Virus genome (UHGV): UHGV-0177146
Length of the DNA stretch: 14,562 nt
From: a virus
Strand: one strand, 5' to 3'
Under the pieces are notes generated by a model. It made no database searches and was not told the DNA's origin. It saw nothing but the letters and a program-made list of their open reading frames with translations. This document shows positions 11,475 to 14,473 of this stretch, piece after piece. The position numbers were made by a program, and so were the translations under genes. The stretch's first letter is position 1, and the number at the start of each line of letters is the position of its first letter.

Positions 11475-11551
11475 CTCTGTTTAGCTCAGCTTGGTAGAGC
11501 GTTCCGTTTGGGGCGGTAAGGCCGGAGGTTCAAGTCCTCCAACAGAGACCA
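11475..11551 (+). tRNA. tRNA-Pro (anticodon TGG), CCA encoded
   Basis: Hand-folded cloverleaf: acceptor CTCTGTT/AACAGAG with a C1:G72 pair (characteristic of E. coli tRNA-Pro), D-arm GCTC-AGCTTGGTA-GAGC, anticodon loop TTTGGGG, T-arm GGAGG-TTCAAGT-CCTCC, A73. Confidence 0.8.
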
Positions 11552-11558
11552 AATTAAT

Positions 11559-11636
11559 GTTCCAGTAGACAAAACGGTAAAGTCACCACTCTTTCAAAGT
11601 GGATATTTGAGGGTTCAAATCCCTTCTGGAACGCCA
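11559..11636 (+). tRNA. tRNA-Glu (anticodon TTC), CCA encoded
   Basis: Acceptor GTTCCAG/CTGGAAC, anticodon arm CCACT-CTTTCAA-AGTGG, T-arm GAGGG-TTCAAAT-CCCTT, G73. The D-stem is short and the variable loop slightly long, so identity is less certain. Confidence 0.65.
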
Positions 11637-11643
11637 GTTTTGA

Positions 11644-11716
11644 CAGAAGACCAATTGCAGCAAACTTAATCTTATTCATCTGACACGAAATCGGACAAAG
11701 AAGAGATTTGGTCTGG
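11644..11716 (+). ncRNA. conserved structured intergenic element A (CAGAAGACC...CAGCAA...GGTCTGG family)
   Basis: 5' CAGAAGACCAATTGCAGCAAAC and 3' TTGGTCTGG form a 7-bp closing helix AGACCAA/TTGGTCT around a ~53-nt loop, between two tRNA genes. Confidence 0.4.
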
Positions 11717-11727
11717 TCATTAAGAAT

Positions 11728-11804
11728 TGCGGGTATAGAGAAAGGGCGTCTCACATGTCTCATTAGCATGGTATCGGCAGGTTCGACTCCTGCACCCGCC
11801 TCCA
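11728..11804 (+). tRNA. tRNA-Met or Ile2 (anticodon CAT), CCA encoded
   Basis: Acceptor TGCGGGT/ACCCGCC with an unpaired 1:72 position, anticodon arm CATGT-CTCATTA-GCATG, T-arm GCAGG-TTCGACT-CCTGC. Confidence 0.65.
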
Positions 11805-11810
11805 ATTTTG

Positions 11811-11870
11811 CAGAAGACCGTATTCAGCAACAAACTACTTTTTGCGGATAAAAGAAAAAACACGGTCTGG
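11811..11870 (+). ncRNA. conserved structured intergenic element B (same family)
   Basis: CAGAAGACCGTATTCAGCAAC ... ACGGTCTGG; closing helix AGACCGT/ACGGTCT around a ~40-nt A-rich loop. Confidence 0.4.
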
Positions 11871-11881
11871 CAATGTATTAA

Positions 11882-11958
11882 GGTTAGGAAGCACATAAGG
11901 TATGTGCGGTCGCCTGTTAAGCGAATGGCACAGGGTTCGAATCCCTGACTAACCGCCA
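11882..11958 (+). tRNA. tRNA-Asn (anticodon GTT), CCA encoded
   Basis: Acceptor GGTTAGG/ACTAACC, D-arm GCAC-ATAAGGTA-GTGC, anticodon loop CTGTTAA, T-arm CAGGG-TTCGAAT-CCCTG, G73. Confidence 0.8.
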
Positions 11959-11967
11959 AATTTAAAT

Positions 11968-12055
11968 GTGTCGTTATCCCGTAGATGGTAGCGGTGGGGA
12001 CTGTAAATCCCTTGTCATTGAGACTCGGTAGGTTCGACTCCTACACGGCACACCA
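11968..12055 (+). tRNA. tRNA-Tyr (anticodon GTA), class II with long variable arm, CCA encoded
   Basis: Acceptor GTGTCGT/ACGGCAC, anticodon arm GGGGA-CTGTAAA-TCCCT, ~15-nt variable arm, T-arm GTAGG-TTCGACT-CCTAC, A73; 85 nt. Confidence 0.8.
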
Positions 12056-12060
12056 ATAAA

Positions 12061-12137
12061 GGCTATGTAGTTTAACTGGAGAAAATACTCCCCTGTCACG
12101 GGAGATGATGTGAGTTCAAGTCCCTTCGTAACCGCCA
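12061..12137 (+). tRNA. tRNA-Asp (anticodon GTC), CCA encoded
   Basis: Acceptor GGCTATG/CGTAACC (one mismatch), perfect anticodon arm CTCCC-CTGTCAC-GGGAG, G73. The T-stem is poorly paired, so this could be a degenerate copy. Confidence 0.6.
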
Positions 12138-12224
12138 AATTATAATAAGTATTTCAAAATGATGTTTTGAGAGGGCTATTTAGCCCCTCCCTTAAAGAGT
12201 TCTTACGAGTATTCTTTAAAGGAG

Positions 12225-12301
12225 CAGAAGACCAAATTCAGCAAGTACGTATGAAATTTTCAAGCCAATTTAATTTTGAAAAAATTTAAAACTTGGTCTG
12301 G
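12225..12301 (+). ncRNA. conserved structured intergenic element C (same family)
   Basis: CAGAAGACCAAATTCAGCAAG ... CTTGGTCTGG; closing helix AGACCAA/TTGGTCT around an AT-rich loop. Confidence 0.4.
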
Positions 12302-12314
12302 CTCAACAAATTTA

Positions 12315-12446
12315 CAGAAGACCGTTTACAGCAAAACTTAAACAATCTATTTCTCCGGTAAAGAAAAGGCGAAGGTTCGATTCCTTCACTCGGCAGATGT
12401 CGAGTTGGTGTAATGGTAGCACTCAAGATGATAAACAACGGTCTGG
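12315..12446 (+). ncRNA. structured RNA element D with internal circularly permuted tRNA-like module; candidate Y-RNA/YrlA-like RNA
   Basis: Closing helix AGACCGTT (12319-12326) / AACGGTCT (12437-12444). Inside, in this order: canonical T-arm GAAGG-TTCGATT-CCTTC (12371-12387), acceptor-like 7-bp hairpin ACTCGGC-agat-GTCGAGT (12388-12405), D-arm-like GTG-TAATGGTAG-CAC (12408-12422). Confidence 0.5.
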
Positions 12447-12447
12447 T

Positions 12448-12591
12448 AATTATCTTTGTAGATAAGTTATTAAGCTTACCTGTGAGTATGCGACCACAAA
12501 GGGTGAAAGGGTAAATTCTAGATTTAAACCCAACAAGGCACATCGCTACAGACCTTAAGCAAGTCTGGGTAGCTTATCTACAAAGATAATT
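12448..12591. repeat. 19-bp perfect inverted repeat (AATTATCTTTGTAGATAAG / CTTATCTACAAAGATAATT) flanking 106 nt
   Basis: Arms at 12448-12466 and 12573-12591 are exact reverse complements; the interior contains a mini-hairpin CAGACC-ttaagcaa-GTCTGG (12549-12568). Confidence 0.6.
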
Positions 12592-12595
12592 TAAT

Positions 12596-13295: not shown

Positions 13296-13378
13296 ATGGG
13301 ACGATGTTAAGACTCTAAGGCATGAGCAACGGCCTCCAAAACCGTTTCAAAGGGGTTCAACTCCTCCGTCCCATGCCA
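13296..13378 (+). tRNA. atypical tRNA-Trp-like gene (anticodon CCA in CTCCAAA loop), 80 nt plus CCA, expanded D region
   Basis: Perfect acceptor ATGGGAC/GTCCCAT, G73 and a CTCCAAA anticodon loop as in tRNA-Trp, T-arm AGGGG-TTCAACT-CCTCC. The D region is ~6 nt too long and the anticodon stem closes with a C:A mismatch. Confidence 0.55.
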
Positions 13379-13391
13379 AAGTCTTATTAGG

Positions 13392-13479
13392 GGTAGGTAG
13401 CGGCTAATGGCAGCCAAACAGTCTTGAAAACTGTTGCCACTGTAGAGATACGGTGAGGGTTCGACTCCTTTACTTACCG
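13392..13479 (+). tRNA. tRNA-Ser (anticodon TGA), class II, no encoded CCA
   Basis: Acceptor GGTAGGT/ACTTACC, perfect anticodon arm ACAGT-CTTGAAA-ACTGT, ~20-nt variable arm, T-arm GAGGG-TTCGACT-CCTTT, G73; followed by CCT rather than CCA. Confidence 0.75.
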
Positions 13480-13634
13480 CCTAATAAGATTTACACCGTC
13501 ATGCTTGCTCGCATTTTCGGTTTATCCCTCGTGTATTGTCGTACACACTGATAAAGCACCTAGTAGGTGTCACGGAGAAGAGATAATATCAAGCTCTCCA
13601 AAGGTTCTAGTCACCGGATTAAACAAGACTATGC

Positions 13635-13656
13635 AAAGACCAATTTAGGTCTTTTT
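13635..13656 (+). terminator. putative intrinsic terminator inside the tRNA island
   Basis: AAAGACC-aattta-GGTCTTT hairpin followed by T-run; the stem uses the same AGACC/GGTCT pair as elements A-D. Confidence 0.45.
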
Positions 13657-13735
13657 AGAGGGCTTCTAAGGTTATTACAGCTTGTTGTGGAACCTTGTTG
13701 CTTAGGTTCTTAGAAGTTCTCTAAAAAGATTTAAT

Positions 13736-13813
13736 GGGAGATTGACGGTAATTGGTAAACCTACCATCCTTAGAAGTTGGTGTTTGAGGGTTCGAATCCC
13801 TTGTCTCCTACCA
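13736..13813 (+). tRNA. tRNA with anticodon TAG (Leu-type anticodon) but class I length (75 nt), CCA encoded
   Basis: Acceptor GGGAGAT/GTCTCCT, anticodon arm CCATC-CTTAGAA-GTTGG, T-arm GAGGG-TTCGAAT-CCCTT, A73; no long variable arm. Confidence 0.6.
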
Positions 13814-13820
13814 AATTAAT

Positions 13821-13896
13821 GCAGGTGTAGCAAAATGGTTATGCGGCTGACTCTTAATCAGTAAGACGATGGGTTCAATTCCCTCCACCTGTACCA
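13821..13896 (+). tRNA. tRNA-Lys (anticodon CTT), CCA encoded
   Basis: Paralogous to the tRNA at 12596; acceptor GCAGGTG/CACCTGT, anticodon arm GCTGA-CTCTTAA-TCAGT, A73. Confidence 0.7.
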
Positions 13897-13902
13897 AACA
13901 AT

Positions 13903-13978
13903 GGGGTCATAGTTTATATGGTTAAAATTCGAGTTTTGCAAACTTGGGAACTGAGTTCAATTCTCAGTGACTCCACCA
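13903..13978 (+). tRNA. tRNA-Ala (anticodon TGC), CCA encoded
   Basis: Acceptor GGGGTCA/TGACTCC with a G3:U70 wobble (the alanine identity element), anticodon arm CGAGT-TTTGCAA-ACTTG, perfect T-arm CTGAG-TTCAATT-CTCAG, A73. Confidence 0.85.
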
Positions 13979-13984
13979 ATTAGT

Positions 13985-14059
13985 GCATCCATAGTTTAAA
14001 CGGGAAAATTACAGTCTTCCAAACTGAGGTTGAGGGTTCGATTCCCTCTGGATGCTCCA
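13985..14059 (+). tRNA. tRNA-Gly (anticodon TCC), CCA encoded
   Basis: Perfect acceptor GCATCCA/TGGATGC, anticodon loop CTTCCAA, T-arm GAGGG-TTCGATT-CCCTC, U73 as in bacterial tRNA-Gly. Confidence 0.85.
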
Positions 14060-14066
14060 AATTAAT

Positions 14067-14142
14067 GCTCCTATCGTATAATTGGTTATTACGGTTGCCT
14101 TGTAAGCAACTTATCAGGGTTCGAATCCTTGTGGGAGCACCA
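14067..14142 (+). tRNA. tRNA-Thr (anticodon TGT), CCA encoded
   Basis: Acceptor GCTCCTA/TGGGAGC, perfect anticodon arm GTTGC-CTTGTAA-GCAAC, T-arm CAGGG-TTCGAAT-CCTTG, A73. Confidence 0.85.
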
Positions 14143-14238
14143 ATTCAGAGGTCAAGTGAAAGACCGCTTTGAGTCAACTGAAGACCGTAACAAATCCCAC
14201 GGAGTTGAGTTAGCGGCACAACTTCAGACCTCTTTCAC

Positions 14239-14313
14239 ACTCGCTTAGTTTATATGGTAAAACATCACCCTTACAAGATGAAGAAAAAGGTTCAAGTCCT
14301 TTAGTGAGTACCA
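14239..14313 (+). tRNA. tRNA-Val (anticodon TAC), CCA encoded
   Basis: Acceptor ACTCGCT/AGTGAGT, D-arm GTTT-ATATGGTA-AAAC, anticodon loop CTTACAA, T-arm AAAGG-TTCAAGT-CCTTT, A73. Confidence 0.8.
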
Positions 14314-14314
14314 T

Positions 14315-14392
14315 GTTCCAGTATCCCAATTGGCAGAGGATGCAAGCTCAAACCTTGTACTAGTGACGGTTCGAATCCGTCTTGGAACACCA
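14315..14392 (+). tRNA. tRNA with anticodon CAA (Leu-type anticodon) but class I length (75 nt), CCA encoded
   Basis: Acceptor GTTCCAG/TTGGAAC, anticodon arm GCAAG-CTCAAAC-CTTGT, perfect T-arm GACGG-TTCGAAT-CCGTC, A73; short variable loop. Confidence 0.6.
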
Positions 14393-14397
14393 ATTTT

Positions 14398-14473
14398 GCA
14401 GGATTAGTTCAAATGGATAGAGCAACAGTCTACGAAGCTGTTAATAGGGGTTCGAATCCCTTATCCTGCGCCA
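14398..14473 (+). tRNA. tRNA-Arg (anticodon ACG), CCA encoded
   Basis: Perfect acceptor GCAGGAT/ATCCTGC, D-arm GTTC-AAATGGATA-GAGC, anticodon arm ACAGT-CTACGAA-GCTGT, T-arm AGGGG-TTCGAAT-CCCTT, G73. Confidence 0.85.

Follow-up and report, generated by a model that had tools for sequence, protein, structure and literature searches.

Thermus phage phiLo encodes a Ro60 protein that binds two phage Y-like RNAs (PMC12135203), and gp130 of phage Bas63 is a Ro60-like protein that counters the Ppl defence system (PMC11482910). To counter Ppl, gp130 suffices on its own, whether a plasmid or T7 expresses it; the anti-Ppl activity therefore needs no phage RNAs. The authors of that study guessed that Y RNAs are hidden among the phage tRNAs (PMC11482910). 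Among bacterial Y RNAs, YrlA mimics tRNA (PMC4201824). The tRNA cluster of phage Felix O1 was published in 2010 (PMC3185647).

In this study, we analysed a stretch of viral DNA of 14 562 nt (the window), which by its sequence comes from a Felixounavirus, a Felix O1-type myovirus: 345 phage records match it, UAB_Phi87/UAB_69 with 98% identity, and the tRNA gene order annotated in the relatives is that of the window. An earlier note had described a tRNA island of 20 genes. In outline it holds: the phage has a tRNA island that encodes CCA ends and possesses promoters of its own. A canonical twentieth tRNA and gaps serving as spacers do not hold, and an internal terminator is not confirmed. As first written, the island is the known Felix O1-type cluster, real but not new, and the region is best explained as the first block of that cluster, which in the relatives continues beyond the window with two CDSs followed by five or more further tRNAs. 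The new part comprises four small RNAs in the island 'spacers', which look like partners of a Ro60-like protein encoded upstream, and a tmRNA-like RNA without a tRNA-like end inside the island. The island is quite probably a non-coding-RNA operon behind a Ro60-like gene with Y-like partner RNAs, and not a plain tRNA array.

The tRNA genes and the gaps between them

ARAGORN called 19 of the 20 proposed genes, all on the + strand within 11475–14473 and with exactly the anticodons listed in the earlier note, and the Rfam tRNA model placed 17 of these 19 above its gathering score (Table 1). This model did not recover the atypical tRNA-CAT (Met-CAT) or tRNA-Tyr, the sole Rfam match of the latter being tRNA-Sec (29.6 bits). 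The atypical tRNA-CAT has a U1·C72 mismatch and an acceptor-to-D-stem linker of 3 nt, and its Felix O1 orthologue has a Cove score of 28.9 (PMC3185647). The twentieth gene, with anticodon CCA, was rejected by both ARAGORN and Rfam. A 3′ CCA is encoded in 19 of the 20 genes, as had been read, the exception being tRNA-Ser, which ends in GCC-T. The proposed identity elements are likewise legible at the gene ends: C1:G72 in Pro, G3:U70 in Ala, U73 in Gly, and G73 in Ser, Asp, Asn and the Trp-like gene.

The island's own promoters are represented by three σ70-like sites with a perfect TTGACA on the + strand; overall, the scan gave no more promoter-like sites than expected from shuffles. The best of them is kept in the related loci L004 and L006 and would start the tmRNA-like RNA. 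The scan passed no + strand terminator within the island; the sole candidate is a weak hairpin at 13635–13656 (AAAGACC..GGUCUUU, then UU). The gaps that had been taken as spacers (91, 77, 458, 247, 144, 254 and 96 nt) contain conserved structured RNAs, namely four Y-RNA-like elements (E1–E4), one tmRNA-like RNA and several stable hairpin domains, and the non-tRNA share of the island is about 1.2 kb.

Table 1. Features of the Ro60-like gene and the RNA island, in window coordinates
Feature	Position	Strand	Remarks
Ro60-like protein gene, 471 aa	9894–11309	+	Pfam DUF2828 + DUF7788 vWA
σ70-like promoter	11328–11356	+	TTGACA-17-TAATAT; promoter scan
σ70-like promoter	11419–11448	+	TTGACA-18-TAAAGT, TG extension; 27 nt 5′ of tRNA-Pro
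tRNA-Pro (TGG)	11475–11551	+	CCA encoded; ARAGORN + Rfam
tRNA-Glu (TTC)	11559–11636	+	CCA encoded; ARAGORN + Rfam
E1, Y-RNA-like	11641–11719	+	UGAC-AGA-AGACCAA-UUG-CAGCAA ... UUGGUCU-G-GUCA
Atypical tRNA, anticodon CAT	11728–11804	+	CCA encoded; ARAGORN, not Rfam tRNA
E2, Y-RNA-like	11808–11873	+	UUGC-AGA-AGACCGU-AUU-CAGCAA ... ACGGUCU-G-GCAA
tRNA-Asn (GTT)	11882–11958	+	CCA encoded; ARAGORN + Rfam
tRNA-Tyr (GTA)	11968–12055	+	Long variable arm, CCA encoded; ARAGORN
tRNA-Asp (GTC)	12061–12137	+	CCA encoded; ARAGORN + Rfam
E3, Y-RNA-like	12222–12304	+	GAGC-AGA-AGACCAA-AUU-CAGCAA ... UUGGUCU-G-GCUC
E4, YrlA-type Y-RNA-like	12312–12449	+	E1–E3 closing module plus permuted tRNA-like domain
E5, stable domain	12449–12595	+	~23-bp closing helix; MFE −47.0 kcal/mol, z = −5.8; 3′ end abuts tRNA-Lys 5′ end
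tRNA-Lys (TTT)	12596–12671	+	CCA encoded; ARAGORN + Rfam
tRNA, anticodon CAT, second copy	12676–12752	+	G1-C72, CCA encoded; ARAGORN + Rfam
tRNA-Ile (GAT)	12754–12829	+	CCA encoded; ARAGORN + Rfam
Best σ70-like promoter	12845–12873	+	TTGACA-17-TATAGT, 11/12; promoter scan
tmRNA-like RNA without tRNA-like domain	about 12879–13040	+	Conserved 5′ GUUUUCGU at 12881–12888
tRNA-Arg (TCT)	13077–13153	+	CCA encoded; ARAGORN + Rfam
Non-canonical tRNA-Trp-like RNA, anticodon CCA	13296–13378	+	8-bp acceptor stem, G73-CCA
tRNA-Ser (TGA)	13392–13481	+	Only tRNA without encoded CCA (GCC-U); ARAGORN + Rfam
Structured 254-nt spacer	13482–13735	+	Includes hairpin 13635–13656; MFE z = −3.8
tRNA-Leu (TAG)	13736–13813	+	CCA encoded; ARAGORN + Rfam
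tRNA-Lys (CTT)	13821–13896	+	CCA encoded; ARAGORN + Rfam
tRNA-Ala (TGC)	13903–13978	+	G3:U70, CCA encoded; ARAGORN + Rfam
tRNA-Gly (TCC)	13985–14059	+	U73, CCA encoded; ARAGORN + Rfam
tRNA-Thr (TGT)	14067–14142	+	CCA encoded; ARAGORN + Rfam
Structured 96-nt spacer	14143–14238	+	MFE z = −3.9
tRNA-Val (TAC)	14239–14313	+	CCA encoded; ARAGORN + Rfam
tRNA-Leu (CAA)	14315–14392	+	CCA encoded; ARAGORN + Rfam
tRNA-Arg (ACG)	14398–14473	+	CCA encoded; ARAGORN + Rfam

The Ro60-like gene and the Y-like RNAs

The gene directly upstream of the island, absent from the earlier note, is the context of the gap RNAs. Its product is an orthologue of Bas63 gp130, and the equivalent Bas63 gene, bas63_0130, likewise lies directly 5′ of tRNAs. 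This DUF2828 and vWA protein is predicted to fold like Ro60: when its AF2 model (pLDDT 85.9) was compared with the PDB using Foldseek, the top 12 matches were all full-length Ro60/TROVE proteins (E values of 4.5e-9 to 7e-7), and only Ro60/TROVE proteins matched over the full length. A MIDAS-like motif, D279-x-S281-x-S283, is invariant.

E1–E4 are paralogous and share a closing helix with a 3×1 internal loop and a CAGCAA motif. The 5′ and 3′ ends pair, followed by single-stranded (U)UA-CAGCAA and then a variable module; the same closing helix and internal loop recur in the MFE folds of all four. E2 also gives a weak full-length match to Rfam Dicty_Class_I_RNA (21.4 bits). A strict structural scan of the window and eight related loci yielded 27 matches, against 0.27 in shuffles, all on the gene strand and within the tRNA array. 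Among 22 distinct closing modules, 10 of the 11 pairs show changes on both sides, and the covariation score is 0.79, compared with 0.26 in shuffles and 0.04–0.15 in slid controls. The figure of 97.5% paired is circular, since the aligned elements were chosen by a scanner that requires pairing; for the closing modules, information comes only from covariation and from the controls with shuffles and the opposite strand. The tRNA-like domain of E4 consists of a V hairpin (12350–12366), a T arm (12371–12387), an acceptor-like stem-loop (12388–12405; ACUCGGC-agau-GUCGAGU) and a D arm (12408–12422). Its acceptor and T stems are fully covaried in orthologues and paralogues, the T, acceptor and D stems of E4-type RNAs show complete covariation between phages, and in three relatives N-CCA stands immediately 3′ of the acceptor 3′ strand.

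Tandem stem-CAGCAA elements flank the DUF2828 genes of Mycobacterium, Campylobacter, Listeria, Staphylococcus, Bacillus and Vibrio phages. In a set of 75 diverse loci from IMG/VR, matches to the strict signature occur 78 times on the gene strand and twice on the opposite strand, with 0.65 expected from shuffles, at a median distance of 255–308 nt from the DUF2828 gene and with one match inside the gene; in about 30 of these 75 distant loci the signature was not found.

Structured spacers are common in tRNA operons, E1 and E2 begin 3–4 nt after one tRNA and end 8 nt before the next, and the MFE z-scores of the individual elements E1–E4 are modest (−0.75 to −1.9). The island could accordingly be a plain tRNA array. 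Its gaps would then be functionless hairpins, terminators and spacers for processing, and the CAGCAA helices would serve tRNA maturation as insulators or as sites recognised by RNases. We consider this improbable: in Staphylococcus phage CoN_Ph6 and mycobacteriophage Lolly9, for example, the elements lie 3′ of the DUF2828 gene with no adjoining tRNA, whereas Erwinia phage Pistou, in which neither the syntenic site nor the first 50 kb holds a homologue, has no stem-CAGCAA element in its tRNA array. The bias of the elements in strand and position with respect to the DUF2828 gene and the complete tRNA-like domain of E4 point the same way. The PhageMaP authors suggested that some of the annotated tRNAs themselves serve the Ro60-like protein as Y RNAs (PMC11482910). 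Met-CAT or the Trp-like gene, in place of the spacer elements, would then be the candidates; this, too, is unlikely. The tRNA mimicry of YrlA (PMC4201824) and the structural deviance of these two members, which fail Rfam, would fit; however, both have free CCA acceptor ends, normal anticodon arms and no 5′/3′ closing helix, and both lack the CAGCAA module, which accompanies the DUF2828 gene across phyla.

The Trp-like and tag-encoding RNAs

The twentieth gene is a tRNA-Trp-like RNA, aberrant yet conserved in distant relatives, where it shows compensatory changes. ARAGORN did not call it with default or with relaxed thresholds, nor did the Rfam tRNA model; its best Rfam match is tRNA-Sec (23 bits, E = 0.23). 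The acceptor and D stems are separated by about six surplus nucleotides, with a conserved GAUGUUAAGAC insertion ahead of the D stem, and the anticodon loop is CUCCAAA, as in E. coli tRNA-Trp. The anticodon and acceptor stems covary in orthologues from the related loci L003, L006 and L008. The tmRNA-like RNA, with matches in 661 phage records, carries an SsrA-type tag frame at 12923–12958 (GCA..GCU UGA UAG) encoding ANDNVFLAVA and two stops, a covarying hairpin at 12970–12991 and an H-type pseudoknot at 13004–13037.

These two RNAs pass no gene finder or Rfam threshold, as might be expected of relics in decay, the one a tRNA pseudogene and the other a piece of captured host ssrA. This origin is very unlikely: in phages whose Ro-like proteins are only 53–63% identical, compensatory changes preserve the CCA anticodon, the acceptor pairing and the anticodon stem of the Trp-like RNA. 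More than 15 variants of the tag frame, from unrelated phage families, keep to 10 codons and to the pattern AN[DE]xxxL[AMIQ][AV]A, and the tag RNA has a covarying hairpin and pseudoknot. It is hardly credible, too, that E4 and the tag-encoding RNA form one two-piece (permuted) tmRNA. In favour of such a tmRNA, the tag RNA itself lacks a tRNA-like domain, ssrA is reported in the genome announcement of phage Moogle (PMC4319497), and ARAGORN reports a permuted tmRNA for Citrobacter phage Mijalis; its permuted call in L004 combines the same tag and stops with the E4 T arm, acceptor 3′ strand and an encoded GCCA. However, the 5′ tRNA half of ARAGORN's call falls within tRNA-Lys, no permuted call is made in the window or L001–L003, the E4 acceptor stems lack G3:U70, and three tRNAs and a promoter separate E4 from the tag RNA. 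Each RNA also occurs without the other: the tag RNA in Vi01-type phages, siphoviruses and Pistou, and E4-type RNAs in L008, L009 and Lolly9.

A proposed operon and its likeness to YrlA

For the preferred reading, a non-coding-RNA operon behind the Ro60-like gene, we infer the following course of expression. Host-type σ70 promoters, two 5′ of tRNA-Pro and one at 12845, would start transcription, and host enzymes would process the transcripts, RNase P at the 5′ ends and RNase E and exonucleases at the 3′ ends. Processing would free 19 canonical tRNAs, making CCA addition unnecessary, together with the aberrant tRNA-Trp-like RNA, and the same cuts would release the RNAs between the tRNAs, E1–E4 among them. 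Their conserved closing module is a putative binding site of the Ro60-like protein and their variable modules may recruit other factors; the resulting RNPs could act in defence or in the RNA metabolism of the host or the phage.

E1–E4 are without the established Ro-binding motifs, GNCGAAN0-1G (YrlA) or GGUCCGA (metazoan Y RNAs), and a search of 161 nt with the Rfam YrlA model did not match the E4 of the window, even with a cut-off of E ≤ 10. The same model matches the E4-homologous element of L009 (40.9 bits, E = 8.7e-6) and an RNA just 3′ of the DUF2828 'Ro-like' gene of Lolly9 (37.7 bits). E4 shares its architecture with bacterial YrlA, the variable module being composed of a T arm, a closed acceptor stem and a D arm.

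The tRNA island and its atypical members

The tRNA island described in the earlier note is correct as written and was already known. The region 11300–14562 (3.3 kb) is matched over 100% of its length with 98.3% identity in Enterobacteria phage UAB_Phi87 and Salmonella phage UAB_69. Altogether 345 phage records, nearly all from Felix O1-type myoviruses (Ounavirinae), match this region, with at least 80% coverage in 243, and the DNA identity to many sequenced Felixounaviruses is 95–98%. Annotated relatives have the tRNA gene order of the window, and in them the cluster extends past the window end into two small CDSs followed by at least five further tRNAs. 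The Felix O1 genome paper documents 22 tRNAs in three groups and sets them against the codon usage of the phage and its host (Whichard et al., 2010; PMC3185647). The order of the Felix O1/Ounavirinae cluster, Pro-Glu-Met-Asn-Tyr-Asp ... Lys-(Met)-Ile ... Leu-Lys-Ala-Gly-Thr-Val-Leu-Arg, is identical, and its tRNAs show no material difference from those of the window (PMC3185647). In published Felix O1-type annotations the gaps are empty or are given small antisense 'hypothetical proteins' (for example bas63_0137, 0138 and 0142). The tRNA island alone is routine, and its interest rests on the hidden content of the gaps.

Of the twenty tRNAs claimed previously, 19 are called by ARAGORN on the + strand with identical anticodons, but the CCA-anticodon gene, here called the Trp-like RNA, fails both in ARAGORN, even at relaxed thresholds, and in Rfam. 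Seventeen tRNAs reach at least the gathering score of Rfam RF00005; the misses include the first CAT tRNA and tRNA-Tyr, the latter being detected in Rfam solely via tRNA-Sec (29.6 bits). The encoded 3′ CCA asserted for 19 of the twenty genes is present, all of them ending in NCCA except tRNA-Ser (GCC-U), and the identity features quoted can be read from the printed gene ends. The suggestion that the island has its own promoters agrees with a promoter scan, which found three + strand promoter-like sites whose −35 hexamer is perfect and placed the best of them (TTGACA-17-TATAGT) within the island. The proposed internal terminator was not recovered, no candidate having passed the scan on the + strand within the island. 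An Rfam search of the whole island at E ≤ 10 returned, beyond the tRNAs, weak tmRNA, tRNA-Sec and Dicty_Class_I matches and otherwise just noise (Plastid-ycf2 antisense to tRNAs and miRNA families).

The Trp-like RNA possesses an 8-bp acceptor stem, G73-CCA, an anticodon loop CUCCAAA on a stem closed by a C.A mismatch, and a conserved GAUGUUAAGAC segment that replaces the two nucleotides of a normal tRNA. The sole ARAGORN output for its locus, a 96-nt 'tRNA-Pyl' at -ps80/-ps70, is implausible and was dismissed. A pseudogene is countered by the orthologs in Yersinia phage P778 and two related loci (L006 and L008): because these keep the anticodon and change the acceptor pairs and the anticodon stem in a compensatory manner (AACGG/CCGUU to GUAGG/CCUAC), we take the gene to encode a tRNA-Trp-like RNA that is non-canonical yet functional. 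Erwinia phage Pistou carries a canonical tRNA-Trp at another array position in place of the Felix-type Trp-like RNA. The first CAT tRNA is itself atypical, with a U1.C72 mismatch, three nucleotides between the acceptor and D stems (one extra) and a 6-nt variable region, and its sequence does not decide between an initiator-like, an elongator Met and an Ile2 identity.

Y-RNA-like elements in the gaps and the adjoining Ro60-like gene

Four Y-RNA-like elements in gaps between the tRNAs, E1–E4, share one closing module. Its outer helix comprises 4 bp and differs in sequence in each copy with the pairing always kept; an internal loop then sets 5′ AGA against 3′ G, and a 7-bp inner helix, AGACCNN/NNGGUCU, is followed by three nucleotides, CAGCAA and a variable interior. 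E1 starts 332 nt downstream of the Ro60-like gene on the same strand, and both E1 and E2 start 3–4 nt past an encoded CCA and end 8 nt ahead of the following tRNA. In the literature on DUF2828 or Ro-like phage ncRNAs, we found no published description of elements of this type, and the phage K transcriptome paper yielded nothing informative.

Features of the tRNA island and its surroundings in the window
Feature	Coordinates	Strand	Description
Ig-domain protein gene	6682-7815	-	377 aa; Ig_3, Ig_2, I-set
Ro60-like gene	9894-11309	+	471 aa; DUF2828 and DUF7788 vWA
E1	11641-11719	+	outer helix UGAC/GUCA
First CAT tRNA	11728-11804	+	
E2	11808-11873	+	outer helix UUGC/GCAA
Spacer	12138-12221		folding z -3.6
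E3	12222-12304	+	outer helix GAGC/GCUC
E4	12312-12449	+	outer helix UUAC/GUAA
E4 hairpin	12350-12366	+	7-nt loop
E4 T arm	12371-12387	+	perfect, GAAGG-UUCGAUU-CCUUC
E4 acceptor-like stem	12388-12405	+	7 bp, ACUCGGC[agau]GUCGAGU, closed by AGAU
E4 D arm	12408-12422	+	GUGU-AAUGGUA-GCAC, preceded by UG
E5, stable domain	12449-12595		folding z -5.8
Best promoter-like site	12845-12873	+	TTGACA-17-TATAGT
Tag RNA (tmRNA-like)	~12879-13040	+	~160-200 nt
Tag RNA core	12914-13038	+	
Tag frame	12923-12958	+	ANDNVFLAVA and two stops
Trp-like RNA	13296-13378	+	anticodon CCA
Spacer	13482-13735		folding z -3.8
Spacer	14143-14238		folding z -3.9

The closing module was sought with a Python scan with shuffled and opposite-strand controls, the long variable insert being unsuited to an Infernal model. 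Under strict structural settings, 27 elements were found in the window and eight related loci, all on the tRNA strand, versus 0.27 in shuffles. More distant relatives have inner helices of other sequence (GGACUG/CAGUCC, GGAUUC/GAAUCC, AGUAUC/GAUACU, AGUGUC/GACACU and AGAAUC/GAUUCU) and retain the loop and CNGCAA. The conserved module of the phage elements consists of an ANA/G internal loop and (U)UA-CAGCAA, with CNGCAA as the single-stranded motif. Among 22 distinct modules, two-sided change affects 10 of the 11 closing-module pairs and the covariation score is 0.79, versus 0.26 for shuffled and 0.04–0.15 for slid controls; since the scan that chose this set itself demanded pairing, only the covariation and its controls carry weight. 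E4 alone contains a tRNA-like domain, composed of a T arm, a closed acceptor stem and a D arm, which E1–E3 do not have. Orthologs and paralogs of E4 in other phages retain all three stems with entirely different sequences, and in three of these relatives GCCA or ACCA follows directly after the 3′ strand of the acceptor stem, as at the end of a tRNA.

The protein encoded next to these elements matches only DUF2828 (1.8e-28) and DUF7788 (4.6e-43) in Pfam, without a TROVE match, and phmmer found no sequence relative of it in the PDB. An AlphaFold (AF2) model built with 40 homologs has a pLDDT of 85.9, and the top 12 Foldseek matches in the PDB are all Ro60 (516–558 aligned columns, TM 0.42–0.66, E 4.5e-9 to 7e-7); the full-length structural matches are Ro60 only, namely Xenopus Ro60, Deinococcus Rsr and Thermus phage phiLo Ro60. 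The predicted structure shows the hallmarks of the Ro60 fold, an α-helical ring of HEAT repeats and, after it, a vWA domain bearing a MIDAS motif, and the residues of the DxSxS MIDAS-like motif (D279, S281 and S283) are invariant. Its ortholog in Bas63 is gp130, which has been described as structurally Ro60-like and as countering the Ppl defence, with the suggestion that "some tRNA genes" might serve it as Y RNAs (2024 preprint, PMC11482910). Four defined candidate Y RNAs with a mutable putative binding module replace this guess, and these candidate partners concern a phage Ro60-like protein with an existing phenotype, Bas63 gp130 also boosting T7.

E1–E4 would be co-transcribed with the tRNAs. 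As RNAs embedded in a tRNA array, they would have their ends defined by tRNA processing; E1 and E2 abut their flanking tRNAs, and ordinary tRNA processing would therefore release both. The protein probably binds at the conserved closing module, and the variable part would serve as the effector module, as in Ro/Y RNPs. A precedent in phages is the Thermus phage Ro60, which binds host PNPase as well as two Y-like RNAs encoded by the phage (PMC12135203). An obligatory RNA partner is another matter: gp130 alone, plasmid-borne or inserted in T7, is sufficient for anti-Ppl activity (PMC11482910), which argues against such a partner, at least for this activity. That the island holds a new form of the Ro60/Y-RNA theme has strong comparative support.

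The association of stem-CAGCAA elements with DUF2828 genes extends far beyond Felixounaviruses. The Ro60-like protein family occurs in 710 phage records at identities down to 25%, and tandem stem-CAGCAA elements adjoin the gene, on the gene strand, in phages of Mycobacterium (3), Campylobacter (2), Listeria (3), Staphylococcus (3), Bacillus and Vibrio, where shuffles give an expectation of 0.3–0.7 per strand. In a sample of 75 IMG/VR loci with proteins 38–48% identical to that of the window, a strict signature (the stem begins with NG, a 2–3-nt linker and CAGCAA come next, and G follows the 3′ strand) was found 78 times on the gene strand, twice on the other strand and 0.65 times in shuffled sequence. 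At least one match is present in 45 of the 75 loci, at a median distance of 255–308 nt from the gene and only once inside it, and the elements have the consensus AAGRNUNNWUA-CAGCAA ... CUG. Erwinia phage Pistou has the tRNA array, and neither a Ro60-like homolog, sought at the syntenic position and across the first 50 kb, nor a stem-CAGCAA element on the tRNA strand was found. The terminal helix and CAGCAA tie hundreds of DUF2828 genes from unrelated phages to a common candidate RNA partner.

Other RNA-related genes were noted near DUF2828 genes. In Listeria phage LMSP-25 (L140, 428–979), the DUF2828 gene lies among ncRNAs, a ROOL RNA (88.5 bits) and tRNAs, with an RtcB-type tRNA-splicing ligase 1.3 kb downstream; in Bacillus phage PK-3 (L142, 401–1809) it lies near a 14-tRNA array, and in Aeromonas phage LAh_6 RNA ligase 2 is near it.

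Several spacers fold much better than shuffles, E5 most strongly (see the table). E5 has a closing helix of ~23 bp and an internal CAGAC..GUCUGG hairpin that echoes the helix of E1–E4. In Bas63 (L138), the minus-strand ORFs bas63_0137, 0138 and 0142 occupy 2949–3223 and 3650–3790, equivalent to window ~12250–12560 and ~12900–13040, and overlie E3–E5 and the tmRNA-like RNA; the small antisense 'hypothetical proteins' annotated in the gaps are probably artefacts of ORF calling. The tRNA region of L009, a 143-kb relative, includes an IS605 OrfB/Cas12f-like TnpB gene (13393–14652), with short repeats (GTGTTCCCCACATG..GATAAACCG) resembling a small CRISPR-like array in the ~600 nt before it. Elsewhere in the window, a gene unrelated to the tRNA island encodes a protein of 377 aa that has three immunoglobulin-like domains and probably decorates the capsid or tail.

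A tmRNA-like RNA with a conserved tag template

Judged by its sequence, the island holds a widespread tmRNA-like RNA, the tag RNA, with an SsrA-type tag template conserved in many enterobacterial phages. It lies downstream of the promoter-like site at 12845, and its resume region and tag frame read AAAUAAAU-GCA AAC GAC AAU GUU UUU CUG GCA GUA GCU UGA UAG. The core is present in 661 phage records of unrelated families, unannotated among the records listed; Vi01-type Ackermannviridae, siphoviruses of Klebsiella and E. coli, and Erwinia phages are among the holders. The tag is fixed at 10 codons, its more than 15 versions all follow the pattern AN[DE]xxxL[AMIQ][AV]A, and both a hairpin and an H-type pseudoknot covary. 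We found no published description in the literature on tmRNA-like phage RNAs.

Likenesses to tmRNA (SsrA, RF00023, and the two-piece permuted RF04321) are a resume region and first codons nearly identical to the Rfam consensus, a 10-codon AND...LAVA tag, double stops and pseudoknots downstream, whereas the alanine-accepting tRNA-like domain (an acceptor with G3:U70, a T arm and CCA) was not found and the tag RNA has a predicted promoter of its own and a length of ~160–200 nt. With RF00023 it scores 14.3 bits and with RF04321 29.6 bits, far below the gathering score of 47. Neither an acceptor stem nor a T arm nor a CCA end was identified in the tag RNA, ARAGORN -m was blank on the window and on L010–L013, and searches for complements of the 5′ end within 1.5 kb and for T-loop motifs gave only lineage-specific coincidences or neighbouring tRNAs. 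One such complement, 10 bp at window 13666, is absent from L004 (Citrobacter phage Mijalis) and L006. In Mijalis, ARAGORN makes the tag RNA part of a permuted tmRNA, a call that we discarded because it fuses E4 with a fragment of tRNA-Lys; a call of this type was repeated in the Moogle genome announcement (PMC4319497).

The invariant 5′ end of the tag RNA, GUUUUCGU, is the exact reverse complement of ACGAAAAC in the E. coli ssrA tag template, a site present in 5416 of 5426 genomes, and in several lineages the tag RNA adds GCGAC facing host GUCGC at the resume codon. Only the consistency of the target site in ssrA is suggestive, the predicted duplex energy being no better than that of shuffled 22-mers (70 of 300 shuffles at least as good). 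A tag RNA devoid of a tRNA-like domain might obstruct or borrow the host tmRNA, and phages might in this way disturb or re-programme host trans-translation.

Three related loci (L009, 10213–10288; L007, 11097–11173; L003, 9009–9149) have short RNAs whose Rfam alignment covers just the two ends of tmRNA. They represent a tRNA-like domain without a tag template, for example GGGGUCG...CGACUCCACCA with G3:U70 (31.6 bits, E 3.7e-9). A pattern search did not find the tag RNA in these three loci, and the domain-only and tag-only RNAs may replace or complement each other.

Comparison with Dictyostelium Class I RNAs and Ro60/Y RNPs

Class I RNAs, in which a short stem joins the ends and an 11-nt motif lies beside the 5′ stem strand, are reported to be unique to dictyostelids and have a largely unknown function, their known binder being the RRM protein Rnp1A (Kjellin et al., 2021; PMC7919456). 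In the Rfam model Dicty_Class_I_RNA (RF01414), a terminal stem of 6 bp leads into CUUACAGCAAU and a variable stretch, and UG follows the 3′ stem strand. The phage elements resemble Class I RNAs in the short terminal stem, the variable remainder, the UG after the 3′ strand, the many paralogs and a motif placed directly after the 5′ stem strand (Rfam consensus CUUACAGCAAU versus phage consensus WUA-CAGCAA). Both the architecture and the UUACAGCAA core agree, but the Class I RNAs are eukaryotic and the covariance-model scores of the phage elements, 21–27 bits, are below gathering (41.5): the full-length sub-threshold matches, with weak E-values, fall exactly on E2 (21.4 bits), two elements of L009 (26.8 and 26.3) and one of a Listeria phage (23.1). 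The candidate cut-off used by Kjellin et al. was ≥25 (PMC7919456). DUF2828 proteins also occur in eukaryotes, for example in plants.

The resemblance may be convergent, and we treat the relationship as a lead, not a result. It is possible, though we think it rather unlikely, that E1–E4 belong to a large undescribed phage RNA family, defined by a terminal helix and (U)UA-CAGCAA, that comprises cognate partners of the DUF2828 Ro60-like proteins in phages of Actinobacteria, Firmicutes, Campylobacter and Enterobacteria and is homologous to the Dictyostelium Class I RNAs. The molecular function of the latter has reportedly been open since 2004, and they are said to be unique to social amoebae. If this homology were true, DUF2828 proteins and Class I-type RNAs would constitute a second, widespread Ro/Y-like RNP lineage.

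Among the nearest known systems are YrlA/YrlB–Ro60 (Rsr) and the Ro60–Yrl1/2 system of Thermus phage phiLo (PMC12135203). As in these, the RNA genes adjoin the gene of a Ro60-fold protein, here on the same strand; the 5′ and 3′ ends pair in a helix with an internal loop, and several paralogs occur per locus. Bacterial YrlA is ordered as 5′ strand, V, T, acceptor stem-loop, D and 3′ strand, and in Mycobacterium smegmatis RNase P cleaves it and CCA is added (Chen et al., 2014; PMC4201824). E4 has the V-T-acceptor-D domain in the identical permuted order, and some E4 relatives resemble M. smegmatis YrlA in a 7-bp acceptor stem followed by NCCA, while E1–E3 are like YrlB in having no tRNA-like domain. 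The Rfam YrlA model (RF02553; gathering threshold 69 bits) gave no match to E4 of the window at E ≤ 10, also when E4 was searched alone; below threshold, it scored 40.9 bits (E 8.7e-6) on the homologous CAGCAA-bearing element of L009 and, in mycobacteriophage Lolly9, 37.7 bits on the RNA that directly follows the gene of the 'Ro-like RNA binding protein'. The Ro-binding motifs GNCGAAN0-1G/CGAA of YrlA and GGUCCGA of metazoan RNAs are absent, the closing modules reading CAGAAGACC, CACAGGAC and so on. The window further differs from Ro60/Y systems in that its protein belongs to Pfam DUF2828, not TROVE, and its RNAs sit inside a tRNA array.
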